Shown in pieces: positions 1-15,983 of a stretch of 16,161 nucleotides of DNA (within the stretch, counting starts at the first letter, position 1; each line of letters opens with the position of its first letter). The stretch comes from a virus. Its lineage: Duplodnaviria > Heunggongvirae > Uroviricota > Caudoviricetes. Below the pieces are notes generated by a model, which was not told the DNA's origin, ran no database searches, and was given only the letters and a program-made list of their open reading frames with translations. Position numbers and translations under genes: made by a program. Where the stretch lies: positions 1 through 16,161 of IMG/VR virus record IMGVR_UViG_2737471845_000010, one strand, 5' to 3'.

Positions 1-655
1 CCGCCACACGTGCAAACAGCACCTGCAGTTTACTGTAATCGGCCTCATTCGGTAACTGCCACTGGCTGGTACCAAACCAGTGCGAAGCCATGTTTTTCTT
101 TCCGGTGGCTTCAGCTATCTGTTTTGACGTTATCCCCAGTGATTCACGCGCATCACGAAAGTAAGCAATCAGCGGGGCCATTACGTGCTGCTTAAGCTCG
201 CGCCCTTTTGCTGCATAACCGTCACTTTTGAGCTGGTATGACCCCTGATAATGTTCAGCAAACAGAATGCGCTCTGTTGCCGGGAAATATGCCCGTAAAC
301 TTTCCTTATTGCACCCGTTCCAGCGTCCGGACGGCTTCGCCCAGATAATGTGGTTCAACACATTAAAACGTTCACGCATCATGAGTTCGGTGTCAGATGC
401 CAGTCGATGACCACAGAACAGGTAAAGACTTCCGGCAGGCTTCAGTACCCGCCAGAACTGCGCCAGACACTGGTCCAGCCATTGCAGGTAATCATCATCG
501 CCCTTCCACTGGTTATCCCAGCCCTCAGGCTTCACTTTAAAGTATGGCGGGTCTGTGACTATCAGATCGACGGAGTTTTCCGGTAAGGTCCGGATAAATT
601 CCAGGCAATCAGCGTTGATTAACTCACAACTGGATATTTTTACAGTATTAGCCAT
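1..655 (-). CDS. DNA methyltransferase with DPPY motif (N6-adenine/N4-cytosine class, phage Dam-like); 3' end lies beyond the window start
   Basis: Reverse-strand reading frame open from ATG at 655 to the window edge with no stops (not in the ORF track because it has no in-window stop). Translation begins MANTVKISSCELINADCLEFIRTLPENSVDLIVTDPPYF, showing the DPPY catalytic motif and an upstream SAM-binding-like segment. Plus-strand ORFs 10..195 and 350..586 are antisense to it. Confidence 0.85.
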   Translation of the reverse strand, partial: MANTVKISSCELINADCLEFIRTLPENSVDLIVTDPPYFKVKPEGWDNQWKGDDDYLQWLDQCLAQFWRVLKPAGSLYLFCGHRLASDTELMMRERFNVLNHIIWAKPSGRWNGCNKESLRAYFPATERILFAEHYQGSYQLKSDGYAAKGRELKQHVMAPLIAYFRDARESLGITSKQIAEATGKKNMASHWFGTSQWQLPNEADYSKLQVLFARVA

Positions 656-805
656 AGATCAGTAAGCACTTCTCTGATAGGCTCATACCGCTTTTGCGCA
701 AAGCAGATGGGCCTGAGGTTTGCTTGTGATCCCAACGCATGAGCAGATGGCTGGCAGGTGCCGCTAACACCCACCAGCCGCCCATTACCACAAATTAAAA
801 AGCCT

Positions 806-1003
806 TCACTGCGGAAGGCGTCTGTAACAACCGAACTGATAATCTGCCAGACCCGCCATAACAAGCTGGGTCAGTATTAACTGGCAGCGTTCGCGTGAAA
901 GGTAAGTATTCTGCGCAATTTCCCCGACGGTCGCCGGTTCGGTGACGCTTAATTCATTAAACACCACTCTGGCGGTTTTGGTCATATCCTGCTGTTTTAG
1001 CAT
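806..1003 (-). CDS. small (65 aa) putative winged-helix DNA-binding protein, possibly FaeA/PapI-like
   Basis: ATG at 1003 preceded by AGGGA about 8 nt upstream; ends at TGA 806..808. The sequence (…ATVGEIAQNTYLSRERCQLILTQLVMAG…) resembles a small wHTH regulator. The longer tracked ORF up to 1225 is read-through of AT-rich non-coding DNA. Confidence 0.45.
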   Translation of the reverse strand: MLKQQDMTKTARVVFNELSVTEPATVGEIAQNTYLSRERCQLILTQLVMAGLADYQFGCYRRLPQ

Positions 1004-1228
1004 GTCTTTTTCCCTATTCCGGTTAACGTGACATACCAATAACTCTTGTCTGAAAAGCCAGCAAGCTGAAAAACCGGTATTCGTAACCACCAGCGCGTTT
1101 AACGTACTGCACCACTTTTCGGGCACAAAAAACCCGCCTAACGGCGAGCTTAAGCTGTGTAGCGAAGTAACCACTCTTAACACACTAAGCGAAAAAATGC
1201 GGACCGCGTTAGTGATTTTTAGCAAGTT

Positions 1229-1259
1229 TTGCTTTATTTTTCCTACGTACAGTAAAAAT
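1229..1259 (+). promoter_or_regulatory. candidate sigma70-type promoter for the 336-aa gene (TTGCTT, ~18 bp spacer, TAAAAA)
   Basis: AT-rich divergent intergenic region 1004..1320; hexamers read by eye only. Confidence 0.25.
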
Positions 1260-1320
1260 AAGAAATCAATTCCAGCCAGGCTGGCTGAGTTAACACAGGT
1301 CTTAGAATGAGGGAACTTCT

Positions 1321-2331
1321 TTGTACGAAATACATTACGACGTTGAGTCTGAACAGCAAGCTTTTGAATTACTTGAACGTTACCTAAACGGACAAGCTTT
1401 ACCCGAAAAAATTAGTTTCAATGGTTGGCCAAGTCTAACCATCAGGTTGACTGGTGAAAAATTCAACAAATCACTCACACCTTCAGTTATGAAAGGATTT
1501 GTTGAAATGCAATCGCAACTCAATAAGTCTTATGCGCTAGCAAAGTTCGGAACTCCTGATGTCCGCAGGCTAACAAAAGAAGAACTTGATGCTTTAGAAA
1601 TTGAAGTTACAGTAGAGCAAGGTTCATCTCTTGTAGAGATTAACATTGATGGCTTCCTAAGCAAGCTTACGCACGAACTGGTAGGGAAAATGAACGCCAC
1701 AGAGATTGTATTTACGGTTCTCGGTGCTGCCGTTATATGGGGCGGTGTAACCGTCTTCAAACGCTATCTGGATAACCGTAAAGATACTCGGTTGGCTGAA
1801 ATTGCTAAAGAAGGCGACAAAGAACACCTACGCGCAATGCAAGTGATGACACAGGAGGAAACAAAACGCCTCCAAATCATCTCAGAAATGGTGGCTAAAA
1901 AACCTCTACTCGACAATATGGATCGAATGTCTTATGACGCTAAAACCACCATGGTTAAATCTTTCGTGCGTTCAGATTCAGCAGAAATTGACGGTGTCAC
2001 AATAGATTCAGAAACGGCAAAAGAGCTAGTAACAAATGCTCGTCGGCGCTCAGTTGAAATGAGAATAGACGGTATATACCGTATCGAAGAAGTGAATAAT
2101 ACCGACCCCGAAAGCTTCAAAGTTAAGGTTCGAAAGGTCGATTCTGATCAACGTTTGACCTGCGTTGTTCAGGATATATTCCTTGATGAATCAGGGAACA
2201 AAGAAGCCTTACAGCGAGCTGAATGGGAAAGAAAGCCTGTGCATTTAAGCATCAATGCCAAACACATTGATGGAGATATCAAGTCCGCCGTAATTTTACA
2301 TGTGAAAGATGTTGAAGATAAGCCCGAGTAA
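1321..2331 (+). CDS. hypothetical 336-aa protein with one central transmembrane segment; AT-rich inserted accessory gene of unknown function
   Basis: Long ORF with TTG start preceded by GAGGGAA; no in-frame ATG further upstream. Central hydrophobic stretch IVFTVLGAAVIWGGVTVF followed by a basic patch KRYLDNRK. The DNA is visibly more AT-rich than the flanking prophage genes. Convergent with Q. No recognisable catalytic motif. Confidence 0.7.
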   Translation: MYEIHYDVESEQQAFELLERYLNGQALPEKISFNGWPSLTIRLTGEKFNKSLTPSVMKGFVEMQSQLNKSYALAKFGTPDVRRLTKEELDALEIEVTVEQGSSLVEINIDGFLSKLTHELVGKMNATEIVFTVLGAAVIWGGVTVFKRYLDNRKDTRLAEIAKEGDKEHLRAMQVMTQEETKRLQIISEMVAKKPLLDNMDRMSYDAKTTMVKSFVRSDSAEIDGVTIDSETAKELVTNARRRSVEMRIDGIYRIEEVNNTDPESFKVKVRKVDSDQRLTCVVQDIFLDESGNKEALQRAEWERKPVHLSINAKHIDGDIKSAVILHVKDVEDKPE

Positions 2332-2350
2332 TCGGGCTGTCTGGTTTCAA
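2321..2350. terminator. hairpin AGCCCGA-gtaa-TCGGGCT overlapping the stop codon of the 336-aa gene, between convergent genes
   Basis: Perfect 7-bp inverted repeat at 2321..2338 followed by a moderately T-containing tract; lies between the 1321..2331 gene and the 3' end of Q. Confidence 0.4.
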
Positions 2351-2727
2351 GATTCCACTTCGGCATCCATTTCTAAACTTACATCCAACATACTCAGGCA
2401 ACCGTCGATAAACCCTTCAGCCATCTGTATCTCTATACGTATCAATTTCTCATCCTTCCAACGCGCCTTTGCAATCTTGCGCTTGGATATCCTGTATAAA
2501 TAATGTGCCACAAGAAGCGAATGCTCATAAGGCCTTTTTTGCTTTAAACAAGCAAGACAACCTTCAATAATTAATGCGTCACTATCTGAACAAGCCAGGC
2601 GTTTCTTACTGGTATAGGGCAGAAGTCCCTTAAACCCGGCAGCTATAGGTGAATAGTCCACACCCGAGCTATCACTAGCCGCCCATGCCCCCCAACGCTC
2701 AAGAACCATCTGAATATCACGCGCCAT
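2347..2727 (-). CDS. late-gene antiterminator Q (phage 21/82/DLP12 QuuD-like family)
   Basis: Translation MARDIQMVLERWGAWAA…IAAGFKGLL… matches my recollection of Q-family proteins of about 127 aa. ATG at 2727 preceded by GGTGG. Sits immediately downstream of rusA, as in the DLP12-type nin region. Confidence 0.8.
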   Translation of the reverse strand: MARDIQMVLERWGAWAASDSSGVDYSPIAAGFKGLLPYTSKKRLACSDSDALIIEGCLACLKQKRPYEHSLLVAHYLYRISKRKIAKARWKDEKLIRIEIQMAEGFIDGCLSMLDVSLEMDAEVES

Positions 2728-3088
2728 CGTTACCACCTGTAATTTCGTAAATCTTCACACCCAGCCGACCACCAGGTACGCGCTGACCGCGCACAATATT
2801 AATTTCATCAAACTGCTCGTCGTCGATAAGCAACCCCGCATGTGTCAGTGCATCCAGTGGTGCTTTCAGAATATTGTCCAGGTCACGACGGCGCTTATCC
2901 GGTGGCTCTGCAGTAATTTTTATTGCCAGCCTTCCGGACAGATTTAATTTCAGCCGCTGCTGGCGAACAATGAGCGCCACATCACGGCGATAACGCTCAC
3001 CGGCTTTTGATACAAAATATGTGCTGCCACGACGTCGCCAGTAGGTGTTTACCGTCGGCGGGTAAGGCAAAACAAACTCTATACGCAT
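2717..3088 (-). CDS. rusA: RusA-family Holliday junction resolvase
   Basis: Translation MRIEFVLPYPPTVNTYWRRRG…DKRRRDLDNILKAPLDALTHAGLLIDDEQ… carries the RusA hallmark segments (PPS/TVN…Y; RRRDLDN; DAL…AG…DD). RBS AGAGG 7 nt upstream of ATG 3088. Confidence 0.9.
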   Translation of the reverse strand: MRIEFVLPYPPTVNTYWRRRGSTYFVSKAGERYRRDVALIVRQQRLKLNLSGRLAIKITAEPPDKRRRDLDNILKAPLDALTHAGLLIDDEQFDEINIVRGQRVPGGRLGVKIYEITGGNDGA

Positions 3089-3100
3089 CAGTAACCTCTT

Positions 3101-4150
3101 TTACCCGAGCACGCCGGTTGCAAAGGCGTGATCAAGAAAACGAAAAATTAAATCAACCTGGGAACCATGCTTTTCTTCGAACGCCAGCGGATCCGCATGA
3201 AGTTCGTTGTGATGTTCCCGGCATAACGGTAGCGTGAAAATATCGTGGGATTTTGTTCCCATTCCGCCCTGACCATGACCAATCAGGTGATGGGGATCGT
3301 CGGCTGGCTTACCACAGCACGCACACGGCTGTGTCTTTACCCAGCGTGTATATTTCTCATTTATCCAACGGCGACGTTTAGGTCGCTTCATGAAAGATTC
3401 CGGAGACTCCGGATCTACGGCAATGCTGACCACCGTCTTTTCCTGTGGTGCGTTCTGTTGCTGGTGGGCGTGAGGTGGTAGCGCAATATTTTTTGTGCGC
3501 TGCTTCAGTATGCTGGTAGCTGTCTGCTCTCCCGGTACGATGTCGCTTTCGCGGTACAGGGAACGGATTTTTTCCACCGGTAATCCCAGCGAACGGCGTA
3601 ATACTGCTTCCGGTAGCGCGTCCGCCACCTGATTGCAGACCGCCCACCAGGATAATTCAGCCAGCGATAACTCCCGCTCCTGCGTGCCATTCATTGCGTG
3701 ACGGATGACGTCAATCATCCAGGCTGTCAGATTTTGATGAGCAAGTTGCTCTAGCGATTCCGAGGTCTGGTCGCGCAGTTGATTGTCACAGTGCCAGCAC
3801 AACACCATCGCGCCGGTACCGTAACGATGTATGACGATTTCACTGTGATGATAGTCACCATGAGGCCACTGGCAGGATTTGACATGACGCAGGAGCCAGT
3901 CAGATAGTGCACCAGCGCCGCCAGCAGCACGAATCACCCGCTCATCGCTGAAAAATGGCAGTAATGATTTATCTTCCGCCAGCGGCTGGCGAACGGCAGG
4001 AACAGCTCCGGACGGCAGACCGCGCATGTTTTTCGGTTCCGGCTCCACCAGCACTCGAGGGCTATGAAATACCTGCATGGATTCACGGCCAGGTTTAAGG
4101 ACCACCAGCCCAAGTTCCGGTACATGAACAGGTCGAAGCAATACCCGCAC
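3101..4150 (-). CDS. nin-region protein with C-terminal HNH-like zinc-binding motif (DUF968-like)
   Basis: 349-codon ORF; GTG start at 4150 preceded by GGAGG and coupled to the upstream gene's stop. C-terminus contains CACCGKPADDPHHLIGHGQGGMGTKSHD…PLCREHHNELH, a Cys/His-rich HNH-type pattern. Confidence 0.75.
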   Translation of the reverse strand: MRVLLRPVHVPELGLVVLKPGRESMQVFHSPRVLVEPEPKNMRGLPSGAVPAVRQPLAEDKSLLPFFSDERVIRAAGGAGALSDWLLRHVKSCQWPHGDYHHSEIVIHRYGTGAMVLCWHCDNQLRDQTSESLEQLAHQNLTAWMIDVIRHAMNGTQERELSLAELSWWAVCNQVADALPEAVLRRSLGLPVEKIRSLYRESDIVPGEQTATSILKQRTKNIALPPHAHQQQNAPQEKTVVSIAVDPESPESFMKRPKRRRWINEKYTRWVKTQPCACCGKPADDPHHLIGHGQGGMGTKSHDIFTLPLCREHHNELHADPLAFEEKHGSQVDLIFRFLDHAFATGVLG

Positions 4151-4151
4151 G

Positions 4152-4424
4152 TTACCTCCAGATGCGTTGCTGGAATGTGCGGGACGGACGCGGTGGGCGT
4201 TCAGAGTAAGGCAGTCTGACTGAGATTATCCAGTGTCGGAAGTCGAGGCTGAGGTCTTTCTGAAACTCGTAACCACGTCTGCGGTAGTTCTGAATTAGCC
4301 ACTCTGCCTGCTCTTCAGTGCATGGATCATGCTGGAACCAGTCGGTTTTAAATGCGCGCGAACGCCGCCCGTATCTGCTGGCAGGGGCGGTATCAGAATT
4401 GTGTAATTTGGTGTGGTGCGCCAT
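4152..4424 (-). CDS. hypothetical nin-region protein (start uncertain; may extend to TTG at 4478)
   Basis: ORF ends one base before the start of the HNH-like gene, suggesting translational coupling. First ATG is at 4424 (MAHHTKLHN…); the tracked ORF starts at TTG 4478. Neither start has a strong RBS. Confidence 0.45.
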   Translation of the reverse strand: MAHHTKLHNSDTAPASRYGRRSRAFKTDWFQHDPCTEEQAEWLIQNYRRRGYEFQKDLSLDFRHWIISVRLPYSERPPRPSRTFQQRIWR

Positions 4425-4605
4425 CTGTTTTCTCTGCTGGCGCAGCAGGTGCCAGTTGTTCAGGCTGGCGTGCGGCAATATTGTCTCTGATTTCTGTTGT
4501 CGTCAACCGCTTCTGTGCTTCCTCTCTTGATGAGTGAAGCGATTAACTTTACTATTTACTTAACAGGTTTTTCCTGTACCACGATTCCCTATACAGGAGG
4601 CCAGC

Positions 4606-4896
4606 ATGAGTGACGACAAAAAAATTGAGTTCAGCACCAGCGATGTGCTGAATGCTTTGTTGCATCGCCAGCAGAACATGCAACACCTGGCAACACAAGA
4701 AAACGTTGATAACCTCCGTCGTGAGATGGATACACGCCTGAACGTTATAGATAAGCGCCTCGACAAAATGGAGCAAGAAACCGAAAGACGGTTCAACAAG
4801 CTGGAAACCAAGTTTGATCGACTCCAGTGGTTTATTGTTGCTGCAGCTCTGGCTCTCATCTTCAAGGATTACATCTTCAGAATTATTGGTGCTTAG
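4606..4896 (+). CDS. small coiled-coil protein with C-terminal membrane anchor (96 aa), opposite in orientation to the surrounding operon
   Basis: Strong RBS AGGAGG 6 nt upstream of ATG. Charged heptad-like N-terminal region followed by the hydrophobic C-terminal stretch WFIVAAALALIF. Immediately followed by a terminator. Confidence 0.7.
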   Translation: MSDDKKIEFSTSDVLNALLHRQQNMQHLATQENVDNLRREMDTRLNVIDKRLDKMEQETERRFNKLETKFDRLQWFIVAAALALIFKDYIFRIIGA

Positions 4897-4901
4897 TAAA
4901 T

Positions 4902-4929
4902 CCGGCCCCGTTTTCGGGGCTGTCTTTTC
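4902..4929 (+). terminator. rho-independent terminator downstream of the 4606..4896 gene
   Basis: GC stem (G)GCCCCG-tttt-CGGGGC(C) followed by a T-rich tract (tgtcttttc). Confidence 0.6.
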
Positions 4930-5089
4930 ACATCTGCATCAGACTTTCCACCAACTTTTTATTGCCAGCTCCTGAAATCTGATCTACCTTATGCGCGTCA
5001 GAACGGCGCAATGCGCTCGCCTGTGATACGTTTACTTGTCATTGGTGGCAACAGATAACGGCAATTGTTGTTTCTGTTTGTTTCCTTCA

Positions 5090-5124
5090 AAAACCCCGGA
5101 CCGTCAATCCGGGGTTTTTGTTTG
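5090..5124. terminator. bidirectional rho-independent terminator (tR-like) ending the minus-strand early block
   Basis: AAAAACCCCGGA-ccgtcaa-TCCGGGGTTTTTG: perfect 7-bp GC-rich stem flanked by an A-run on one side and a T-run on the other, so it reads as an intrinsic terminator on both strands. Confidence 0.65.
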
Positions 5125-5204
5125 TTATCCCCAGCGGCAAATCGAATACACCATCAGCGCCACCGCCATCGCAATTCCTGCCGTTGTGAATGCTTCAGGC
5201 CAGG

Positions 5205-5567
5205 TCATCGTAAAATATCCTCCACGCTTATCAGTCCGTTTCGCTCCAGGTAGTCCATCACCTTATCCGGCAGTTTGCAGTCCGGCTTCGCTTTCCTCAG
5301 TTGCCAGGTTAACTGCTTTACCTGCATGGTTAACTCGTCGACCAGACGCTGATACCCCACTGGTTTGTATTCATAAAATTTACCAACTGGCGCTGCTGCC
5401 AGCGATTGCAGTGCAATTTCCAGAACAGCAATATCCATCTTATATGCGCGAATGAGGTCATGGTCGATTGTACCTGGTATGCACAGTCTCTGTGATTCAA
5501 TAGTCTCCTCTGCGTGGGCTATTAACTGCTCTTTGGTAAACCGTTCTTCTTTGGTCAAAGTCGCCAT
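5205..5567 (-). CDS. hypothetical early protein (120 aa)
   Basis: ATG at 5567 overlaps the stop of the upstream small gene; GGAAGAG upstream. No recognised motif. Confidence 0.65.
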
Positions 5568-5568
5568 T

Positions 5569-5742
5569 TTACTCTTCCACTTCGTCTTTTATTTCGTAAA
5601 TTGAGTAATTGCAGTGATTAAAGAAAACATCAATTGCCTCGTTTTCTATTTCCTCAGGAGTCGCGTCATCATCCACTTCAAATACATCTTCACGCACGCC
5701 ACCAACAATCCTCGTTTCGATAACTATTTTGAATTTTCGCAT
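5569..5742 (-). CDS. small acidic hypothetical protein (57 aa), below the ORF-track size cutoff
   Basis: Hand translation [65 protein letters not shown] upstream of ATG 5742; fills the gap between neighbouring genes. Confidence 0.5.
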
Positions 5743-5832
5743 TGTCTTACCACCATTTCTGGCAGTCTCCTGATGTTCTGAGGGTGCAGAAATCCCTCCG
5801 GTTAAGGATTTTATTTTCGATAATAATATTGG

Positions 5833-6189
5833 TTATTCTGGTCTGGTTTTTGTCGCCCTGCGTATCCGCGCTTTCACATTGCGCTCAATCTGAATTAGCT
5901 TTTCTATATTTTTACGTCTTTCCCGTTCCTCCTGACGCAATTGTTTTACATCATCTGCCAGTCTGGTTTCTCTTTTCGCCACAGAGAGCATCCAGTCAAA
6001 TGGCTCCACAACTGCACCGCAGATTTTACAACGGACATGACGCTCTTTTTCATCAACCCTGACAGAGGCGTGATGGCAATATGGTTTCTCCGATGGCTCA
6101 TAAAGAAAATTAACCTGATTACGTGGGTCATCCTCTTTTACCGGAAATAAAACAATATTACTTAACTCATCTTCTGGTTTTATTTCCAC
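5833..6189 (-). CDS. hypothetical protein with zinc-ribbon-like motif (CHH…C-x2-C)
   Basis: GTG start at 6189 preceded by AAAGGAGA; the longer tracked ORF (to 6264) would overlap the upstream gene. Contains PYCHHASVRVDEKERHVRCKICGAV. Confidence 0.6.
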   Translation of the reverse strand: MEIKPEDELSNIVLFPVKEDDPRNQVNFLYEPSEKPYCHHASVRVDEKERHVRCKICGAVVEPFDWMLSVAKRETRLADDVKQLRQEERERRKNIEKLIQIERNVKARIRRATKTRPE

Positions 6190-6190
6190 G

Positions 6191-6520
6191 TCACTCTCCT
6201 TTGATGCGAATACCTGCAACACGCAGTGCATGCTCCAAATCAGCCAGATAAAGCCAGCGCCCATGCTCTTTGGGCATCATGACATATTGCTCATCGGCAT
6301 TTATCGGATGACCCCTTCGAAGGTCATAGCAAGTCGGTAAATGCACTGCCCTTGCTTCCAGCTCTGCAATGCGTTTATCTCTGGCTTCCAGTTCGTCCAG
6401 TAACGCCAGCACAACCTGCGGTGTGACTTTCATGCGAAACGCCAGCAGTTTCTGAGGTGTGGACACTGTTTTTATTGCCTCTGCCACATCACGCAACGCC
6501 TGGTTGTTAATCTGATTCAC
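6191..6520 (-). CDS. hypothetical early protein with coiled-coil segment (109 aa)
   Basis: GTG start at 6520 with GAGGTG RBS; start overlaps the stop of the upstream gene (GTGA). LLDELEARDKRIAELEA heptad-like segment. Confidence 0.65.
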   Translation of the reverse strand: MNQINNQALRDVAEAIKTVSTPQKLLAFRMKVTPQVVLALLDELEARDKRIAELEARAVHLPTCYDLRRGHPINADEQYVMMPKEHGRWLYLADLEHALRVAGIRIKGE

Positions 6521-6831
6521 TGCGTCACCTCACGATTCCTCAACCAGATACAAACCGGTCCATCCTCGGTGTCATGAATGGAGCCAATAAACCAGCCCTC
6601 ACCCTCTGGTCGTTCAGGTTCCCATGCGGAAATATCGGGACCATCTGCATCCGGGTTAAAATCATCTTCATCCATACTGCGAATAGTCCACTGAAGATTA
6701 TTTGCCTTCATCCAGGCGTTAAATTCTTCCGTCGAAATATACTCCCGGCCATCACAAAATTTTTCATATTCAGGATGCGTCCAGCAGCCATATTCATCAC
6801 GTTCTACCGGCAGTTCTTTGATTTCAATCAT
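6517..6831 (-). CDS. hypothetical acidic early protein (104 aa)
   Basis: Internal ATG at 6831 preceded by GGAG at suitable spacing; the first ATG of the tracked ORF (6858) has no RBS. Confidence 0.6.
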   Translation of the reverse strand: MIEIKELPVERDEYGCWTHPEYEKFCDGREYISTEEFNAWMKANNLQWTIRSMDEDDFNPDADGPDISAWEPERPEGEGWFIGSIHDTEDGPVCIWLRNREVTQ

Positions 6832-6844
6832 AACATTAACTCCA

Positions 6845-7021
6845 TTAAGATAATGCAAAACAAATTAACCACACCACGACAACCGATGCTATTAACACCC
6901 TGATTGCAAACAGCGGGCTGATATGTCGAAAAGGATTTTCCCAGATAATAAAAGCCGCTGCCAGAAATGCACTGATAAGTAAAACAATAACAAACAGCTC
7001 AATTTTGATTATCCAGAACAT
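6845..7021 (-). CDS. small hydrophobic membrane protein (58 aa)
   Basis: Two predicted hydrophobic helices (IIKIELFVIVLLISAFLAAAFII and LFAIRVLIASVVVVWLICFAL); start overlaps the upstream stop. Confidence 0.45.
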   Translation of the reverse strand: MFWIIKIELFVIVLLISAFLAAAFIIWENPFRHISPLFAIRVLIASVVVVWLICFALS

Positions 7022-7023
7022 AT

Positions 7024-7320
7024 TCACTGCATCGCCTTCTGTAAAATAACCGCATGCCCCAGCTTCTCCGCCAGCGCCAGTTCTGCCTTAGCACCCGCCG
7101 ACCGCTGCCAGCCATTCAGCATGTAAATCGCATCCACGCAACGTATCATCGCCATGCAGATATCCATGTACTGCGACTGAGTCAGTCCGTCCGGAAGTAC
7201 TGCCGGGTTTAAGACGGTATGCCCTTCCCGTTTCAGTTCCTCTTCTGCCTTGTGGAACGCCTCACGGTTGAAATTTTTATACCCGGTCATCGGACCGGCG
7301 ATATAAACCCTCACCCTCAC
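7024..7320 (-). CDS. DUF4406-like protein (nucleoside 2-deoxyribosyltransferase-like fold)
   Basis: GTG start with strong AGGAGGTG RBS, overlapping the upstream stop. N-terminal RVYIAGPMTG…FN…AF motif typical of this family. Confidence 0.7.
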   Translation of the reverse strand: MRVRVYIAGPMTGYKNFNREAFHKAEEELKREGHTVLNPAVLPDGLTQSQYMDICMAMIRCVDAIYMLNGWQRSAGAKAELALAEKLGHAVILQKAMQ

Positions 7321-7709
7321 TCAATCACCTCCTGAAAATTACCCCGATAGAACGCCAGTACACGTTGCATTGATTCGCTGTTACGGCATTCCCGGCAAAT
7401 TATGTTCATGTCTCTGTCGTAGCGACGGATTTCACCATCAGGTAACTTCCGGACCAGTGCCGGGTCAGCTTTCTTCGGAGTTTTACACCACGCCTGATAC
7501 GCCTGTTCTGATACAAAAACACCGTGTTTACCGGATATGTACAAATCACCACAAGCAACCACATCCACAAGACAACGTCTGACCGTATGCCAGCCCGCCC
7601 CCGTTGCCCTCTCCAGTTGCGACATCGTCATGCGTTTGTTCCTGTGTATCAGCCCGATAATTCGCGCCTTCAGTTCTTCCCGCTGTTCGGGTGTAAAAAC
7701 GCTTGCCAT
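7317..7709 (-). CDS. hypothetical protein with predicted HTH segment (130 aa)
   Basis: AGGAGG RBS upstream of ATG 7709; segment MTMSQLERATGAGWHTVRRCL resembles a helix-turn-helix. Confidence 0.7.
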   Translation of the reverse strand: MASVFTPEQREELKARIIGLIHRNKRMTMSQLERATGAGWHTVRRCLVDVVACGDLYISGKHGVFVSEQAYQAWCKTPKKADPALVRKLPDGEIRRYDRDMNIICRECRNSESMQRVLAFYRGNFQEVIE

Positions 7710-7723
7710 GAGTCCTCCTGAAA

Positions 7724-8470
7724 TTACTTCACAACCCTTAAATGGCTGACATTTGAACGCCAGCTCTCCCAGTTAAAATTCACCCAGCGACCACCGTTCA
7801 TGGTCATGCGGTCCATCACGCGCTCGCCAAGCAGCGTATTCATTGCCGTATGGTTCAGGTTCGTCAGCATCCCGACGCTGTGCATCGAGGCTGTTCTGCG
7901 ATCGACTATCTGGTTCAGTGTGACCTGTTCGTTACGCGTATCCCGCTGCATACCAATTTCATCCAGGACAAGCAGGTCAACTTCACACAACCCCTGCAAA
8001 AATTTTTCGCCCGAGTTTTTGTTGTCGTAGTTGCCGTGTAACGCCAGCATCACATCCGCCACCGTCACCACAATCACGCTGCGACCTTTCGCCAGAAGAT
8101 GGTTGCCAATGGCTGCTGCCAGATGATTCTTTCCGGTACCCGGCTTACCGCTGAACACGAAATTTGTGCATCCGGTCATCATTTCTTCCGCGATGGATTT
8201 TGCCTGGCTCAGCGCGTGGCGTTGGCCATCGTTCTTCACCTGGTAATTCGCAAACGAACACTTCTGGTGCAACAGTTGGATACCGGAACGCTTCATAATT
8301 TTCTCCACCCGGATCTGGCGATTCTGGCGGTTAATTTCCTCACTACGCTTTCGCCCTTCTGCAAGCTGCCACTCTCGCCACTCGTCCACTGTCCGGTACG
8401 GCGCGGTTACATGCTGCGGGGCCAGCTTACGGATACGCTCAAGAACACCACCTGCCGCAATATTTTTCAT
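7724..8470 (-). CDS. DnaC/IstB-like AAA+ replication protein (helicase loader; Rac YdaV-like)
   Basis: Walker A motif GKPGTGKNHLAAAIG and Walker B-like LLVLDEIG; positioned immediately downstream of the replication initiator gene. Confidence 0.9.
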   Translation of the reverse strand: MKNIAAGGVLERIRKLAPQHVTAPYRTVDEWREWQLAEGRKRSEEINRQNRQIRVEKIMKRSGIQLLHQKCSFANYQVKNDGQRHALSQAKSIAEEMMTGCTNFVFSGKPGTGKNHLAAAIGNHLLAKGRSVIVVTVADVMLALHGNYDNKNSGEKFLQGLCEVDLLVLDEIGMQRDTRNEQVTLNQIVDRRTASMHSVGMLTNLNHTAMNTLLGERVMDRMTMNGGRWVNFNWESWRSNVSHLRVVK

Positions 8471-8476
8471 AACCCG

Positions 8477-9424
8477 TTACCCCCTGAATCCCGGCGGAAT
8501 TTCGGTATCCGGTTCAGAAATGTGATTCACACAACGCTGTACAGGCGAACGCCCCAGGCGGATGACCAGTTCGTCCCATTTTTCACGAAGCTTTGACGGG
8601 CTCATGACGTTTCTTACCCAGAATGGATCCCGTTGTACCCGACTGAACATTTCGCAAATTTGCCTGTGAGTTCTGCCATCCAGCACCCGCATTGTGCGCA
8701 CGTCATTGGCCCATGCTGTCCAGTTGGGTTCTTTCGGTCGCGTAATCTCGCCATCATCGCTGGCAGCCTGTTCGTAAAGACTCACGATTCGCCCCCAGAT
8801 CCACTGCGCACACGTCAAATCTTCCTGGCTGCCCCACTGGCGTTTTTTCGCACTGAACACAACCGCGTCAGGATGTCGGGTTAAAAAATCCTGTTCAGCC
8901 GTCTCCTCGTCCGGTTGCGAAGCTTCCGGACGAAAAGATCTTTTATCTGACGGATCAGGTTTTAATACTGACGGATCGGGGCCAACCATCGCCCCCCTAT
9001 CCGGCTGTTTTTTATCAATGGTTGATCCATCAAAATTTGAGGGGTCAACCGTTGAGGGGGCAATATTTGACGGGTCATTTTTTGCCTGGCTAATTTTTCT
9101 TTTCGGTTTATATGCCTCACGCGCCGCCGCTGCTGCTGCTTCGAGTTTTTCCACATTAAGACGGTAGATATTGCTTTCATTACGCCCACCGACCTTACGT
9201 TCCTCCTTCGTCAGCCAGCCGTTCTTTTCCAGTTCCGCTATCGCCGCTTTAACCGTTGATTCACTCTTTGCCCCAATCTGACGACGAATGGTCTCCACTG
9301 CAGGCCATGACACACCTTCGTCATTGCTGTAATCTGCAAGGCGAGCCATTACTGCCACCCTGGATAAGATCATGCCGGTGAAGGCACACCCTTCCCAGAC
9401 AAGACCATGAAGCTTGCTGCTCAT
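8477..9424 (-). CDS. phage replication initiation protein (lambda O-like functional analogue) with internal iteron origin
   Basis: GGAG RBS upstream of ATG 9424. N-terminal HTH-like segment; central repetitive DPSN/DPSV/DGST protein segment encoded by the iterons; followed by the DnaC-like gene. Confidence 0.85.
   Translation of the reverse strand: MSSKLHGLVWEGCAFTGMILSRVAVMARLADYSNDEGVSWPAVETIRRQIGAKSESTVKAAIAELEKNGWLTKEERKVGGRNESNIYRLNVEKLEAAAAAAREAYKPKRKISQAKNDPSNIAPSTVDPSNFDGSTIDKKQPDRGAMVGPDPSVLKPDPSDKRSFRPEASQPDEETAEQDFLTRHPDAVVFSAKKRQWGSQEDLTCAQWIWGRIVSLYEQAASDDGEITRPKEPNWTAWANDVRTMRVLDGRTHRQICEMFSRVQRDPFWVRNVMSPSKLREKWDELVIRLGRSPVQRCVNHISEPDTEIPPGFRG
8946..9115. repeat. candidate origin of replication: about five iterons (consensus TGA(C/G)GG(A/G)TC) plus adjacent AT-rich tract, inside the initiator gene
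   Basis: Copies at approximately 8948..8956, 8969..8977, 9038..9046, 9052..9060 and 9068..9076 (TGACGGATC, TGACGGATC, TGAGGGGTC, TGAGGGGGC, TGACGGGTC), followed by the AT-rich stretch 9077..9115. Architecture parallels lambda ori within gene O. Confidence 0.6.
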
Positions 9425-9447
9425 AAAAAACTCCGAACACCGTGCTT

Positions 9448-9873
9448 TTAGTGCATCACCACAGCATTTCCTGCCGGGCCACCACGATTCATCTGATTGA
9501 AACCGGCGATTGCCACTGCGACAAAATCATCAGCGTCTCTCACCAGTCGTTCCCGCGTCTCCACCAACTCCCGAAAATAGACTGAACTGTGGCTGCGCAT
9601 CCGGGCCACCAGCAGAGGTGGCATTGCTTTTTCGATAGCCGGTAACAACGCCTGAATTTTTTTAACCGCATCAGGAGTGTCTTTCTCTACCCAGCGGAAA
9701 ATTTTCTGGGTATTGCGAGCCAGGGCTTCCGGATGGCTATCGTCATACAGTTCAGGAAACGTCATACCCAACTCAAAATAAGCCTGGGTTATTCCAGCTG
9801 CTGGAACTTTTTCACCGTCCGGATGCGCCCAGACATTCATCGCCATGCGGATGTGTTCATGCTTGATTTTCAT
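9448..9873 (-). CDS. YdaT-like (CII-position) regulatory protein
   Basis: Begins MKIKHEHI, as I recall for the Rac YdaT family. ATG overlaps the stop of the Cro-like gene (ATGA). Position corresponds to cII in lambdoid layouts. Confidence 0.7.
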   Translation of the reverse strand: MKIKHEHIRMAMNVWAHPDGEKVPAAGITQAYFELGMTFPELYDDSHPEALARNTQKIFRWVEKDTPDAVKKIQALLPAIEKAMPPLLVARMRSHSSVYFRELVETRERLVRDADDFVAVAIAGFNQMNRGGPAGNAVVMH

Positions 9874-10085
9874 GAATCATTCTTTCCTTCGTTCGAGGTG
9901 CTATCCTGCTTCTTGTAAAGTTCTGGGTTGTATTTCAATTCACCGTTAGTAATTTCATCCAGCTCCATTGCTCGAAGTTTGGGAATAACTGCTTTCCACC
10001 GCACAACAGCCACATGTGAAATTCCAAGAGCCTCAGCTACTAGTCGCTTTTTTTTGAAATAGCGCAGAACATCATCTTTGAACAT
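9870..10085 (-). CDS. Cro-like repressor (DicC/YdaS-like small HTH protein)
   Basis: AGGAGAG RBS upstream of ATG 10085. 71 aa with HTH (RLVAEALGISHVAVVRWKA). Divergent from the CI-like repressor gene across an operator-bearing intergenic region. Confidence 0.8.
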   Translation of the reverse strand: MFKDDVLRYFKKKRLVAEALGISHVAVVRWKAVIPKLRAMELDEITNGELKYNPELYKKQDSTSNEGKNDS

Positions 10086-10114
10086 AAAACTCTCCTGTTA
10101 TTTCGAGCAGGAGG

Positions 10115-10176
10115 GTAACAATAGTTACATAGCAATGTCAACCATAGCAACATCACTTGGTAGTAACATTGGTTAC
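10115..10176. promoter_or_regulatory. OR-like operator region: two GTAAC-N4-GTTAC palindromes between the divergent cro-like and repressor genes
   Basis: GTAACaataGTTAC at 10115..10128 and GTAACattgGTTAC at 10163..10176, the latter directly abutting the repressor ATG. A TTGACA hexamer is present on the minus strand in this interval. Confidence 0.6.
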
Positions 10177-10851
10177 ATGAAAAACACTATCAGCGAACGT
10201 ATTCGGAATCGTCGAAAAGACGTTGGATTAACCCAACAGCAGGTTGCGAAAGCAATCGGCATATCTCGTGTATCCGTAACAAAATGGGAAAATGGCTCTT
10301 CAAAACCTGACGGTGAGAATTTACATCTACTGTCAAAATTGCTTTCCAAATCTCCTGAATGGATTCTTTATGGAAAGGACGGTCACGATAAAACCGATGA
10401 TCTGCGTCTGAATCAGTACCTTTACATTAGTGACAACATCGCCCGGTTGCCCGTTTTAACGTGGGAACAGGCTGGTTATTGGGATATGAGTTGCCCAGTA
10501 ACCGAGATTCCTGGTATTAAGAATTGGGTTGATGTCATGACAAAAACCGCTGAAAACTCTTTTTTATTGCATGTTGAGGGAGATGCGATGACAAACTCTA
10601 ACGGCCTCCCAACCATCCCCGACGGATCTACCGTGCTGATCACACCATGCTCAAGTAACATTAGAGAACTGGCGGGGAAAATAATCTTAATCCAATTGGA
10701 AGGAACGCCAAACGTAACACTAAAAAAAGTTGCGATTGACGGACCAAACATCTATCTGTTGTCACTGAATCCGCTTTACAAACCCATCGAACTGAATGGC
10801 GGTTACACCATTAAAGGTAAAGTTTCACAAATACATCAATACTTAGATTGA
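10177..10851 (+). CDS. CI-like prophage repressor (N-terminal XRE-type HTH plus C-terminal S24 LexA-like domain)
   Basis: HTH segment LTQQQVAKAIGISRVSVTKWENG. C-terminal domain aligns by eye with lambda CI (…EGDAMT…; …VTLKKV…). Start chosen at ATG 10177; the tracked ORF begins at TTG 10078 and would overlap the operators and the cro RBS. Confidence 0.85.
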   Translation: MKNTISERIRNRRKDVGLTQQQVAKAIGISRVSVTKWENGSSKPDGENLHLLSKLLSKSPEWILYGKDGHDKTDDLRLNQYLYISDNIARLPVLTWEQAGYWDMSCPVTEIPGIKNWVDVMTKTAENSFLLHVEGDAMTNSNGLPTIPDGSTVLITPCSSNIRELAGKIILIQLEGTPNVTLKKVAIDGPNIYLLSLNPLYKPIELNGGYTIKGKVSQIHQYLD

Positions 10852-10855
10852 GTCA

Positions 10856-10883
10856 GAACCCGCATTCATTGCGGGTTTTTTAT
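10856..10883 (+). terminator. rho-independent terminator after the repressor gene
   Basis: AACCCGCA-ttcatt-GCGGGTT stem-loop followed by TTTTTT. Confidence 0.7.
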
Positions 10884-10912
10884 GCCCTCAAACGTACCTT
10901 TTGCAACATCGT

Positions 10913-10939
10913 ATTGACTCATGTGGTAACTCTTGTTAC
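10913..10939 (+). promoter_or_regulatory. OL/PL-like element: TTGACT hexamer followed by the third operator palindrome GGTAACtcttGTTACC
   Basis: Same GTAAC-N4-GTTAC half-sites as the two OR sites (10925..10938), located at the head of the plus-strand early-left operon. The -10 element is not clear. Confidence 0.5.
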
Positions 10940-11259
10940 CTTAACAACATACCAACCCACTCCGCCCCACAGAATGCAGGGCAATACTTCGAGTTACCAG
11001 GCAGTGGTCAGGGGGTAAGTAGCCAGCCCGAGGCGTAAGAACATGACGGCAGGGTTCAACTTTAACTATGCAGCAGGTTTTTGTTCCGCTACCCCGGCGT
11101 TAAGGGGAAACAGAGGATTTCTCAGTGGGCGAAGTCAAACATCAGAATGGAAGGCATCCTGGGCTCTGCAAAGAAGCAGCAATGGCGCTTTATATTGACA
11201 TCAGCGCCATTGCCGGACAGCTAAGAATTATCAGGGCGGTAACTAAGCGGTATGCGCCT

Positions 11260-11460
11260 TTACTTCAGAAAGTCTCTTGTGAGTGCACCGAAGATATTGT
11301 CAACGATTTCGTCATCGAACTGCGAAGACTCATCTTCAGTTACAAGGTGACCACAATTTTTGCAGATGGCTCCCGCGAAACTGTCAGAGCCCTGCGGCTT
11401 AAAGGATGTGTCAAAGACTTCGCCACCACATTCTGGGCAAGAAAACTTGATTGTATTCAT
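11260..11460 (-). CDS. small zinc-ribbon protein (66 aa), antisense to the early-left operon
   Basis: Two CxxC pairs (CPECGG … CKNCGH) with an acidic C-terminus; GAGAGGAAA RBS about 6 nt upstream of ATG. The overlapping plus-strand ORF 11125..11481 is the alternative reading and contains several rare AGA/AGG codons. Confidence 0.45.
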   Translation of the reverse strand: MNTIKFSCPECGGEVFDTSFKPQGSDSFAGAICKNCGHLVTEDESSQFDDEIVDNIFGALTRDFLK

Positions 11461-11552
11461 AACCAATTTCCTCTCGAGTAACAGACCCCTCAGAGGATAC
11501 CACCTCGCCTGACGTGGTTAAAAGCAGGCAACGCTAACCACAAGGAGCCGAC

Positions 11553-11750
11553 ATGCAGAAACGAGAACCCGTCATCATCGCGCCAGACTATACCGATGAT
11601 GAACTTTATGAGTGGATGCGCCAGAAAATTAATGCAGCGCAGGATTTGAAATGGGCCAATGAAGCTAGGGCTAAGCAGGCTGAAAATCTGTCCGCTCTGG
11701 AGCAGGATATCACCAGGCTGGAAAAAGCAGCGGCATTAAGCATTGCCTGA
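11553..11750 (+). CDS. small hypothetical early-left protein (65 aa)
   Basis: RBS AAGGAG 6 nt upstream of ATG; coiled-coil-like C-terminus. Confidence 0.65.
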   Translation: MQKREPVIIAPDYTDDELYEWMRQKINAAQDLKWANEARAKQAENLSALEQDITRLEKAAALSIA

Positions 11751-11793
11751 ATGATTACATACCCACGTTAATAGCTAACCAACGAGGCTAATA

Positions 11794-12201
11794 ATGGAAT
11801 TTAAAGATTTACCAAAAGAAATCCAGACAATTGCTGCAACGACTCTCGGTGATAGTCTGGTGAAAATTGACCCGGCATACACCAAAAAAGAAACCATCGA
11901 TAATATGGTTCGTAATGTGCGCAATGCTTTTTCTGGGCTATATGGTTCTGATAATCAAAAGCAGGAAAGCGATGTTAATAAACGGGTAATTTCTGTTTGC
12001 GTGAATGGCCATGTTCTTTCATCAATCAAAACAGAAACGGCGACAGTCTTCGATTGCCTTTGCATTGTACAGAGCCTTGTTGATGCCCTGTTTCGTTCAG
12101 TGAATTTAGAAAATGACGCAAATCTGCGAGGGCGCACAATAGCACATCCATATGCACATACTTTAGGCTCTGTGGATATCAAAGATCCCACAAATCTTTA
12201 A
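11794..12201 (+). CDS. hypothetical early-left protein (135 aa)
   Basis: RBS-like ACGAGG upstream of ATG; 3' end overlaps the convergent minus-strand gene by about 23 bp. Confidence 0.6.
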   Translation: MEFKDLPKEIQTIAATTLGDSLVKIDPAYTKKETIDNMVRNVRNAFSGLYGSDNQKQESDVNKRVISVCVNGHVLSSIKTETATVFDCLCIVQSLVDALFRSVNLENDANLRGRTIAHPYAHTLGSVDIKDPTNL

Positions 12202-12412
12202 TGAAATAGTTAACGCGAATTGTACTTGCTCTTTCAGTTGCTTTCAGAATACGCGTTGAAACTGCTGGCGGTAATTTGGTATTCCATTTATTAAAATCAT
12301 GCCCGGGAAAGTACTCTTCGAAAATACTTTTAACTGCAGACTCGCCTATTGAAATGCTGCTTACCATGCGATTTTGATAAAGGCATTTAGCAATAAGAGT
12401 TGATTTTAACAT
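12179..12412 (-). CDS. hypothetical 77-aa protein encoded opposite to the early-left operon
   Basis: Strong RBS AGGAGGG 4 nt upstream of ATG 12412; convergent 3' overlap with the 11794..12201 gene. Confidence 0.55.
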   Translation of the reverse strand: MLKSTLIAKCLYQNRMVSSISIGESAVKSIFEEYFPGHDFNKWNTKLPPAVSTRILKATERASTIRVNYFIKDLWDL

Positions 12413-12747
12413 TCACCCTCCTGAAGGTTGGTAATTAAGGAGTTCTCCACGGGTGGGGTGGAGTGCGTGCGCCGGACACGGGTGAGCATCCGGCACTGAC
12501 AGTTTACTGAAAGGATATTTCTCTGAAAAGTCAGAGCATAACGCGAAAGCGCACGGCGAGGTTGCTGGTTCATAGATAGCCTGTCGTTAAATTTTCGTCG
12601 ACCGTGCGCTTCCGGTTGTGGCACCCCGCGAAATGGCGCGGCGGTAAGTATGGCGGGGTTATCCTTACCCCCACTGGTGGCACCGGGTTGTCAGGTTGAC
12701 CATACGCCTGAGTGACAACCCCGCCACAACATCTCCATGTTGAGGCT

Positions 12748-12802
12748 TGTGTGAGACCTTTGGCGGCATCAGTTTAATTGCTGGCTGATGTCCGCCCTTT
12801 TT
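12748..12802 (+). ncRNA. dicF: DicF-like small RNA (cell-division inhibitor sRNA family) ending in an intrinsic terminator
   Basis: Sequence …CCTTTGGCGGCATCAGTTTAATTGCTGGCTGATGTCCGCCCTTTTT closely resembles my recollection of E. coli DicF (GGCGG…AUCAGUUU…CCGCCCUUUUU). Long imperfect hairpin GGCGGCATCAG / CTGATGTCCGCC plus T-run. Located directly upstream of a dicB homologue, as in Qin. 5' boundary is approximate. Confidence 0.55.
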
Positions 12803-12985
12803 AAAGTGAATTTTGCGATGCGGTGAATGCGGCTAAGCGCACGCGGAACAGTTAAAAAGGCCAGTTGACTTCCGTATTGGTTCTTATGGGTGGGTTCTCT
12901 GTATCCGGCGTTAATTGTTAACTGGTTAACGTCACCTGGAGGCACCAGGCACCGTATCACAAAATTCATTGTTGAGGACGCGATA

Positions 12986-13174
12986 ATGGAAACGTTATTA
13001 CCAAACGTTAATACGTCTGAAGGTTGTTTTGAAATCGGTGTCAGAATCAGTAACCCTGTATTTACTGAAGATGCCATTAATAAGAGAAAACACGAACGGG
13101 AGCTATTAAATCAAATATGCATTGTTTCAATGCTGGCCCGTTTACGCCTGATGCAAAAAGGACGCTGCCAATGA
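12986..13174 (+). CDS. dicB: DicB-like cell division inhibitor (62 aa)
   Basis: Translation METLLPNVNTSEGCFEIGVRISNPVFTEDAINKRKHERELLNQICIVSMLARLRLMQKGRCQ is near-identical to the E. coli DicB sequence as I recall it. GAGGA RBS; the tracked ORF's upstream extension is not needed. Confidence 0.8.
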   Translation: METLLPNVNTSEGCFEIGVRISNPVFTEDAINKRKHERELLNQICIVSMLARLRLMQKGRCQ

Positions 13175-13374
13175 ATACAGCATTTGCACTCGTTCTGACA
13201 GTTTTTCTTAATACAGGCGAACCAGTCGATCTTGTTATTGGTATACATGACTCAATGAAAGAATGCATGGCTGCCGCAGCGGAACAGAAAATTCCCGGCA
13301 ACTGTTATCCGGTTGATAAAGTTATTCGCATGGACAATAACGAAATCCCGGCAGGACTTAAAACAGCACCGTAA
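13171..13374 (+). CDS. ydfD: YdfD-like small membrane/lysis protein (67 aa)
   Basis: ATG overlaps the dicB stop (ATGA). N-terminal hydrophobic helix AFALVLTVFL, then …CMAAAAEQKIPGNCYPVDKVI…, resembling Qin YdfD from memory. Same gene order as Qin dicB-ydfD. Confidence 0.6.
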   Translation: MNTAFALVLTVFLNTGEPVDLVIGIHDSMKECMAAAAEQKIPGNCYPVDKVIRMDNNEIPAGLKTAP

Positions 13375-13454
13375 TTAATATCCGGTTTCATTTTTATATG
13401 CCAGCAATGGCAGGGATTTGTTCACCATTAAATCTGTAATGAGGTTAAAACAAA

Positions 13455-15917: not shown

Positions 15918-15983
15918 TGTTCACCCCTGATCGCCGTCCCCGAATTATATTGGCGGCGGTCATGCTGTAAGGCACGTGACCAC

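Follow-up and report, generated by a model that had tools for sequence, protein, structure and literature searches.

We examined one gene in a 16,161-nucleotide stretch of viral DNA (IMG/VR record IMGVR_UViG_2737471845_000010, positions 1 to 16,161; Caudoviricetes), referred to below as the window. The whole window is a mosaic Escherichia coli lambdoid prophage, whose best complete-genome matches cover 63 to 69% of it at 91 to 95% identity. The gene, an open reading frame (ORF) of 96 amino acids (aa), lies on the plus strand inside a minus-strand early-right operon. A first-pass annotation of the DNA had described this arrangement, and both the position of the ORF and the strands of its neighbors confirm it: the O-like, DnaC-like, nin-type, DUF968, RusA, and antiterminator Q genes are all on the minus strand (Table 1). 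The gene has its own ribosome binding site (RBS), its own terminator, and probably its own promoter, and as judged from the sequence it forms a single-gene moron, inserted in reverse in a nin-region slot that separates the replication genes from DUF968-RusA-Q. The encoded protein is predicted to be a membrane-anchored coiled coil with a head, a neck, a stalk, and an anchor.

A reversed cassette in the nin region

The first-pass annotation had proposed that the gene is an independently expressed insertion, and comparisons with related prophages uphold its independent organization. In the otherwise collinear, near-isogenic prophage of strain PapRG-04-4 (L010), window positions c. 4470 to 4989 are replaced by 835 bp carrying hokD and a small ORF, between a left flank that is 87% identical and a right flank (4990 to 5700) that is 98.7% identical. 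Homology to this prophage breaks off at ~4470; it returns at ~4954, at first weakly, and is strong from 4990. Positions 4470 to 4507 were assigned to the backbone because they are 100% identical in >300 E. coli genomes without the gene; given this shared stretch and the similarity that resumes near 4954, the cassette proper therefore spans ~4508 to 4953. In other E. coli strains or prophages the slot is held by RelE/ParD, and four IMG/VR prophage contigs carry the gene in the equivalent slot, equally reversed, beside the small ORF, DUF968, and RusA. The polymorphic slot itself is bounded by the small ORF upstream of DUF968 and a 120-aa ORF (5205..5567), with its counterpart at 2672 to 3506 of L010. 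Filled with hokD and a small ORF, with RelE/ParD, or with the present gene, it looks like a cargo hotspot of E. coli prophages. The corresponding K-12 slot, in Qin upstream of DUF968/ydfU, has the gene order rem-hokD-relBE-ydfV-flxA.

Reverse-oriented morons with their own terminators are well known in lambdoid prophages, and the slot next to the nin genes and DUF968 is known for hokD and relBE. The present cassette resembles such morons in having its own terminator, in standing as an autonomous unit between backbone genes, and in being exchanged among near-identical prophages, at a slot upstream of DUF968/ydfU that holds hokD or RelE/ParD elsewhere. It differs in its cargo, an uncharacterized membrane-anchored coiled coil rather than a toxin-antitoxin pair, and in its rarity. 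Replacement between collinear genomes, as expected of a moron, is seen with hokD in the PapRG-04-4 prophage and with RelE/ParD elsewhere; as for a promoter and terminator of its own, which would serve expression from the repressed prophage, the terminator is present, and promoter-like sites were found with 8/12 matches by eye in E. coli and with 9/12 matches at a conserved position in orthologues.

Partial matches to the 1-kb region occur in 3,027 of 5,426 complete E. coli genomes, with ≥80% coverage in four of them, and ≥80% of the cassette is present in just 6 of the 5,426. A tblastn search of 50,697 phage records gave no match to the cassette protein. Three IMG/VR contigs of another temperate-phage type carry a relative between DNA polymerase/antirepressor genes and genes for a Gp2.5-like single-stranded-DNA-binding protein and exonuclease, reversed in two of the three. 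These two nonlambdoid insertions (L058, ~4845 to 5204; L059, ~4677 to 5138) are an independent case of a like insertion.

The gene is preceded by an exact AGGAGG (4595 to 4600), which the first-pass annotation had called near-consensus, and is followed by an intrinsic terminator of its own, which that annotation had likewise placed there. The terminator hairpin (4903 to 4922) precedes a T-tract and folds with −16.2 kcal/mol (z of −4.3; 0/200 shuffles as stable); it is kept in the two other aligned E. coli copies (L001 and L011) and is absent from the hokD cassette. A second, bidirectional terminator farther along had been taken as part of the insertion signature. The terminator does exist, at 5088 to 5120: its stem of 13 to 15 bp lies between an A-run and a T-run, and the hairpin can fold from either strand (−20.7 and −23.0 kcal/mol; z of −4.5 and −4.3). 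It is no mark of the insertion, however, because it lies outside the cassette, in the 98.7%-identical backbone shared with the hokD prophage, and across four prophages, the hokD one included, its stem is conserved while its loop varies. The region as a whole holds 7 terminator-like sites, compared with 2.2 ± 1.3 expected. One further 9-bp inverted repeat, GTTCAGCAC...GTGCTGAAT at 4629..4653, lies within the sequence that encodes the head and was picked up as terminator-like on either strand; an IMG/VR contig has a similar hairpin at the equivalent place (L057, 5025 to 5047), and the repeat may be a mere reflection of conserved FSTSDVLNA codons.

Promoter signals were less clear. The first-pass annotation had suggested promoter prediction across 4479..4605, and our scan of the plus strand of this interval gave no site at the threshold of 9/12. 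By eye, a candidate sigma-70 promoter, TTGATG-17 nt-TACTAT (8/12), can be recognized; it is identical in three E. coli copies, a comparison of little weight since the copies are 98% identical overall. A different promoter-like site, TTGCAA-17-TAAAAT (9/12), lies 35 to 55 nt upstream of the orthologues in Erwinia tracheiphila (L014, 5937 to 5965) and an IMG/VR contig (L057, 4917 to 4945), and a resembling sequence is aligned with it in a second IMG/VR contig and a Pantoea metagenome-assembled genome (L054 and L017). The E. coli cassette has diverged where these orthologues carry the site. A promoter-like site is also found upstream of the Photorhabdus orthologue. By eye, we found no match to a sigma-28 promoter of the flxA type and no LexA box, the upstream CTGT...ACAG being spaced by 15 nt rather than 8.

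An inverted repeat in the 5′ untranslated region (UTR), CCUGUA...UACAGG, would pair with part of the Shine-Dalgarno (SD) sequence. Folding of 4556 to 4625 gave −14.8 kcal/mol (z of −1.9), with 9/200 shuffles as stable, and the hairpin was not seen in the divergent orthologues compared. No Rfam family reached its gathering score in the whole window, and the weak Rfam matches between 4200 and 5400, which all overlap the 5088 to 5120 terminator hairpin, were rejected.

An antisense ORF of 101 aa (4560..4865, minus strand) overlaps the gene and, in some E. coli and IMG/VR copies, is longer (115 aa) than the sense ORF, so that it could mislead gene callers. A third-codon-position test for the coding strand was uninformative, as sense and antisense third positions coincide; for this reason, we relied on the integrity of the ORFs across genera. 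In the Vibrio and Photorhabdus loci, the antisense ORF is fragmented while the sense ORF is intact. Because the protein is conserved across genera and the antisense ORF is not, the plus-strand ORF is, on comparative grounds, the real gene, and the antisense ORF is an artefact of coiled-coil codon usage.

Table 1. Coordinates of the cassette, its signals, the parts of the encoded protein, and the surrounding prophage genes in the window
Feature	Position	Strand	Basis
Putative moron cassette, ~450 bp: promoter region, gene, own terminator (approximate limits)	c. 4508..4953	+	blastn and alignment with hokD prophage L010
Candidate sigma-70 promoter, TTGATG-17 nt-TACTAT, 8/12 (weak evidence)	4527..4555	+	by eye
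5′-UTR inverted repeat, CCUGUA...UACAGG (weak evidence)	4573..4597	+	RNA fold
SD sequence, exact AGGAGG, 5 nt before ATG	4595..4600	+	sequence
Coding sequence, 96 aa, head-neck-stalk-anchor coiled-coil protein	4606..4896	+	ORF and homologues
Head, residues 1-26, MSDDKKIEFSTSDVLNALLHRQQNMQ, predicted helix 11-25	4606..4683	+	alignment, AlphaFold2
Neck motif H27-L-A-T-Q-E32, candidate beta-layer	4684..4701	+	alignment, break in AlphaFold2 model
Heptad-repeat stalk, residues 33-73	4702..4824	+	A1 alignment, continuous AlphaFold2 helix
C-terminal hydrophobic tail anchor, QWFIVAAALALIFKDYIFRIIGA	4825..4893	+	hydropathy, relatives, hhalign
Own intrinsic terminator: 8-bp stem (7 G-C), UUUU loop, then UCUUUUC	4903..4929 (hairpin 4903-4922)	+	scan and folding
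Bidirectional terminator of prophage backbone, nin-region type	5088..5120	both	scan, folding, alignment
Antiterminator Q gene	2347-2736	-	
RusA gene	2717-3088	-	
DUF968 gene	3101-4150	-	
Run of small nin-type ORFs	between DnaC/IstB-like gene and DUF968	-	
DnaC/IstB-like gene	7724-8470	-	
O-like gene	8477-9424	-	
cI-like S24/helix-turn-helix repressor	10078-10851	+	

Two further observations concern the neighborhood. A minus-strand promoter-like sequence, TTGACG-18-AATATT (4477..4506), lies ~50 nt upstream of the small ORF 4152..4424, back-to-back with the candidate plus-strand promoter and within the 38-nt stretch (4470 to 4507) that is 100% identical in >300 gene-free E. coli genomes; it might restart the operon past the 5088 to 5120 terminator. 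A plus-strand ORF of 336 aa (1321..2331) just downstream of Q also runs opposite to the operon and has no Pfam match at an E value of ≤1e-3. In E. coli PapRG-04-4, a gene annotated as "hypothetical protein" stands at the equivalent position beside Q (L010, 1..532), a correspondence in position; the ORF may be another moron.

Protein architecture and relation to DUF1640/CCDC90-like proteins

An AlphaFold2 (AF2) monomer model, built from a 22-sequence alignment (predicted local distance difference test score [pLDDT] of 72), consists of a helix at residues 11 to 25, a break at 26 to 30, and one long helix at 31 to 95. The head is the most conserved part of the family, with the consensus ..KIEFSxSDVLNALLH.. 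and, in a second subgroup, ..FTQKDLMxxLLH... The neck follows: H27, A29, T30, Q31, and E32 are invariant in family alignment A1 and nearly so in the wider family, where the motif H-x-A-T-Q/R-E-S/E coincides exactly with the break that separates the helix of the head from that of the stalk. The stalk is built of RFEQVDK-type heptads, in numbers that differ even between closely related proteins, so that the family members range from 88 to 155 aa.

The C terminus (KFDRLQWFIVAAALALIFKDYIF...) is hydrophobic, with a 19-residue Kyte-Doolittle mean of 1.93 from residue 76. In 45 of 46 relatives a hydrophobic segment occupies the extreme C terminus, with 1 to 8 residues after the hydrophobic window, and in several relatives with a like head it is replaced by a canonical transmembrane (TM) segment. 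A coiled coil with a C-terminal membrane anchor, as the first-pass annotation had it, is thus supported by the long helix of the model, by the C-terminal segments, and by the relatives with a canonical TM segment.

This order of parts resembles that of the CCDC90-like/DUF1640 proteins (PF07798; MCUR1, CCDC90B, and yeast Put6 and Put7), which likewise have a head, a neck motif of the A-T-K/Q beta-layer type, a coiled-coil stalk, and a C-terminal anchor. Homotrimeric assembly is characteristic of those proteins, and the window protein would probably be a trimer too. The bacterial DUF1640 members, like the window protein, are small, often prophage- or plasmid-borne, and uncharacterized. In DUF1640 membrane proteins, the stalk starts with the beta-layer motif [aliphatic]-A-T-K-[polar]-[DE] (Hartmann et al., eLife 2016, PMC4786415). 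The window protein has L-A-T-Q-E-N at residues 28 to 33, and its family differs from the published motif in having Q/R for K at position 4 and S/N/E for D/E at position 6, so that a Q/R-E-S/E neck stands against K-polar-D/E. In N-terminal subalignments with DUF1640 the two neck motifs were in register, with an hhalign probability of 2% that is not significant, and nothing aligned upstream of the neck. The head is also the shorter one, a single short helix in the AF2 model compared with ~40 residues in DUF1640.

The C-terminal half tells a different story. An hhalign comparison of A1 with A3, an alignment of 16 PF07798-type proteins, gave a probability of 98.1% (E of 8.5e-14) over the C-terminal 59 columns, comprising stalk and anchor, a figure that comes partly from the heptads. 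The shared anchor motif, KFDRLQWF..A..L..FK[DE], is specific, unlike heptads. A distant relative found by profile search, P0185, joins a classic DUF1640 head (MGQVAFDT...SHEVADVATK) to the anchor of the present family (KFDRLQWFLVASVLVLLFKE), and relatives of P0185 in Arsenophonus, Sodalis, Symbiopectobacterium, and Hamiltonella carry PF07798 with several interchangeable anchor types. PF07798 itself has a gathering score of 33.5 bits; it scores 26.1 bits with P0185, 25.0 bits with P0379, and 19.5 bits with P0161, all below that score, and is absent from the top families for 22 relatives. In insect endosymbionts (Arsenophonus and Symbiopectobacterium), several distinct PF07798/DUF1640 copies occur per long contig (alignment A3), with one conserved head joined to at least three C-terminal anchor types; this variety suggests module shuffling.

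By these profile comparisons, the stalk and anchor are homologous to the stalk and anchor of some CCDC90-like/DUF1640 proteins, a subset from enterobacterial symbionts. We did not file the window protein under PF07798, because its stalk and anchor align while the N-terminal parts do not and because PF07798 gives no match. It is better regarded as a domain-shuffled relative, in which stalk and anchor are shared, the neck motif is similar, and the head is shorter and of another kind.

Other families were considered and rejected. Scans of the protein against Pfam, PHROGs, NCBIfam, and PADLOC returned only subthreshold coiled-coil matches, among them LMP, FliD_C, HA2-like, syntaxin, DUF16, and DUF1664. 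The sole match in PADLOC-DB v2, PDC-S32 (E of 0.0089; 13.7 bits), was not significant, and PDB sequence-profile matches to influenza HA2 and spike heptad repeats (E of ~1e-3) are compositional. In relative P0134, DUF2730 (33.7 bits) covers the repeat region only, a matter of coiled-coil similarity. The source labels "DUF1640" and "Hemolysin XhlA" on some relatives were not reproduced by current Pfam. A match to a known early-operon component, which the first-pass annotation had named as a result that would speak against its reading, did not turn up in the homology searches.

Two families resemble the protein in outline. ElaB, YqjD, and YgaM (DUF883) are tail-anchored E. coli inner-membrane proteins of ~100 aa with a helical cytoplasmic part; they serve as membrane tethers, reportedly bind ribosomes in stationary phase, and are encoded by chromosomal stress-regulon genes. 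They share the size, helical cytoplasmic part, and C-terminal tail anchor of the window protein but have neither its heptad-repeat stalk nor its A-T neck, and the Pfam scans found no relation to DUF883. XhlA of Bacillus PBSX-like prophages is also a small phage-encoded protein, in which a coiled coil at the N terminus is combined with a hydrophobic segment at the C terminus. Its profile (PF10779) matches the window protein with 12.9 bits (E of 0.13), far from the gathering score of 34.7 bits, and without the conserved head and neck of the present family; its genomic module differs as well, the window gene lying reversed in the early region, outside the lysis cassette. XhlA is an architectural analogue only.

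Family spread and genomic contexts

The family extends well beyond E. coli prophages. We found 89 homologues at an E value of ≤1e-3, in E. coli, Salmonella, Erwinia, Serratia symbiotica, Photorhabdus, Vibrio, and metagenomes, all annotated as "hypothetical." A profile search of 1.84 billion representatives gave 168 matches at an E value of ≤1e-10, many of them repeat-driven, with ~30 full-length relatives of 85 to 156 aa. The matches listed for a search with the head and neck profile were all ≤95 aa and carried no fused domains.

In Photorhabdus, the gene directly follows icd, which in E. coli is a classic site of prophage attachment, in 14/14 species examined, while the downstream genes vary among three different sets. 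At these loci (L003, L013, L015 to L016, and L018 to L027; gene at ~6001 to 6400), the protein ranges from 103 to 155 aa among species, with a varying stalk length. Plasmid records carrying the gene come mostly from Vibrio (43/45), and several of the records are from isolates of shrimp with acute hepatopancreatic necrosis disease. In the Vibrio plasmid loci examined (L006 to L009, L012, and L051), the homologue stands first in a codirectional block with ArdC-like zincin and antirestriction genes, and the Vibrio copy has terminator-like hairpins on both sides. On pVHvo-R (NZ_CP045862.1, 74399 to 74686), this block lies a few kilobases from topoisomerase, MobC relaxase, and type IV coupling protein (T4CP) genes, a layout that resembles a plasmid leading region. 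A Sulfurimonas copy sits by nusA, among housekeeping genes.

Among 66 neighboring proteins at 20 non-Photorhabdus loci, no recurrent family was enriched. Because the contexts are so varied and share no recurrent neighbor, the orthologues have promoter-like sites, and the Vibrio copy is flanked by hairpins, the gene travels as its own unit.

Proposed tether function and alternatives

We consider it moderately probable that the cassette is a reversed moron encoding a lysogen-expressed inner-membrane tether, probably trimeric, with a cytoplasmic head. The orientation of the gene, opposite to the lytic operon, suggests expression in the lysogen; once the prophage is induced, antiterminated pR transcription would cross the gene in antisense and could silence it. 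With no signal peptide and just 1 to 8 residues after the hydrophobic segment, the protein would be an inner-membrane protein held by its tail, its head and stalk staying in the cytoplasm. The A-T neck motif may form a beta-layer leading into a trimeric stalk, and such a trimer would hold the small conserved head some nanometers off the membrane. For eukaryotic DUF1640 members, a matrix-facing scaffold role has been described (PMC7519068; bioRxiv 10.1101/2025.10.14.682030). By analogy with the proposals for MCUR1/CCDC90B and Put6/Put7, the head might bind a conserved partner and keep it at the membrane, as a tether or scaffold does.

Several results weigh against this tether interpretation. 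PF07798 gave no match to the window protein at an E value of ≤1, no relation of its head to that of DUF1640 could be detected, and a Foldseek search of the AF2 monomer against PDB gave no matches. Coiled-coil composition inflates profile scores, and just one of the several anchor types of PF07798 proteins is shared. The model behind the proposed trimer is that monomer, with its pLDDT of 72. The anchor is atypical, with 12 to 13 hydrophobic residues followed by a conserved K-D/E and an amphipathic end, and may be monotopic or interfacial, or may even serve as an oligomerization core. The E. coli promoter stays at a by-eye 8/12, and a binding partner is known for no bacterial member.

The fixed Photorhabdus copy suggests a physiological role of some other kind, and it bears on the alternative that survives best, superinfection exclusion or anti-phage activity, in which a membrane protein expressed in the lysogen blocks DNA entry or an early step or triggers abortive infection. 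Many superinfection exclusion proteins are likewise small and membrane-anchored. The reversed moron occupies a slot otherwise filled with toxin-antitoxin modules (hokD and RelE/ParD), which are often linked to phage defense, and its carriers are two prophage types and plasmids. PADLOC, however, yields no more than the PDC-S32 match at the coiled-coil level, the bulk of the predicted protein is cytoplasmic rather than at the entry face, and the position by icd in every Photorhabdus species examined and beside housekeeping genes in Sulfurimonas suggests a role in cell physiology. We regard exclusion as somewhat unlikely; it is a possible biology of a tether and not a different structure.

The same slot, alternating with hokD and RelE/ParD, could instead hold a toxic or addiction membrane protein, a replacement for Hok that is silenced by the RBS-occluding 5′-UTR hairpin and damages the membrane once derepressed. 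The hairpin pairs with part of the SD sequence, the C terminus is hydrophobic, and the XhlA "hemolysin" profile matches weakly. The hairpin is, however, marginal and unconserved in orthologues; the scan found no antisense promoter, and there is no antitoxin partner among the neighbors. Proteins of 96 to 155 aa with a conserved soluble head are unlike type I toxins, conservation is strongest in the head and neck, and Photorhabdus chromosomes stably carry the gene in single copy. A toxin is thus improbable.

We think still less of a function in establishment or anti-defense for incoming mobile DNA. It is suggested by the Vibrio plasmid homologue, which opens the ArdC-like/antirestriction block a few kilobases from the MobC relaxase and T4CP genes, but the association is confined to Vibrio plasmids and absent from the prophage, Photorhabdus, and Sulfurimonas contexts, and the orientation in the prophage fits lysogenic rather than early lytic expression. 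An XhlA-like lysis accessory (in Bacillus PBSX, XhlA acts at the membrane with holin and endolysin) is the least credible candidate: the gross architecture of a short coiled coil with a C-terminal TM segment agrees, PF10779 and the PHROG "hemolysin" families phrog_1193 and phrog_937 (E of 0.003 to 0.02) match weakly, and some Vibrio relatives are labeled "Hemolysin XhlA" by their sources, yet all of these matches are far below threshold, the Vibrio proteins so labeled have no PF10779 match at an E value of <0.01, the window gene is an early-region gene opposite to the lytic operon, and the family is found, too, on plasmids and chromosomes where the gene has no lysis genes around it.

A broader extension of the tether interpretation is speculative, and we judge it unlikely. 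The family would be a previously unrecognized, mobile, single-gene class of tail-anchored trimeric alpha/beta coiled coils in which a highly conserved 25-residue head captures a conserved cytoplasmic target at the inner membrane, such as some part of the machinery for DNA entry, replication, or translation, so that one protein would provide prophages and plasmids with an exclusion, defense, or establishment function. If true, this would explain the toxin-antitoxin-type slots in prophages, the place as first gene of the ArdC/antirestriction blocks on Vibrio plasmids, and the fixation in the Photorhabdus chromosome.

The insertion itself is an ordinary moron, and in that respect the result is modest. 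What is new is an uncharacterized family without a Pfam model, which can be understood as the DUF1640-like head-neck-stalk-anchor architecture with a new variant of the head. The literature searched gives no described function for any bacterial DUF1640/CCDC90-like member. The nin-region slot, which holds hokD, RelE/ParD, or the present gene depending on the strain, is useful for mining accessory and defense genes. If the tether interpretation is true, this protein of 96 aa, with separable head, neck, stalk, and anchor, would offer a small and readily handled starting point for experiments on the DUF1640/CCDC90-like architecture in bacteria.

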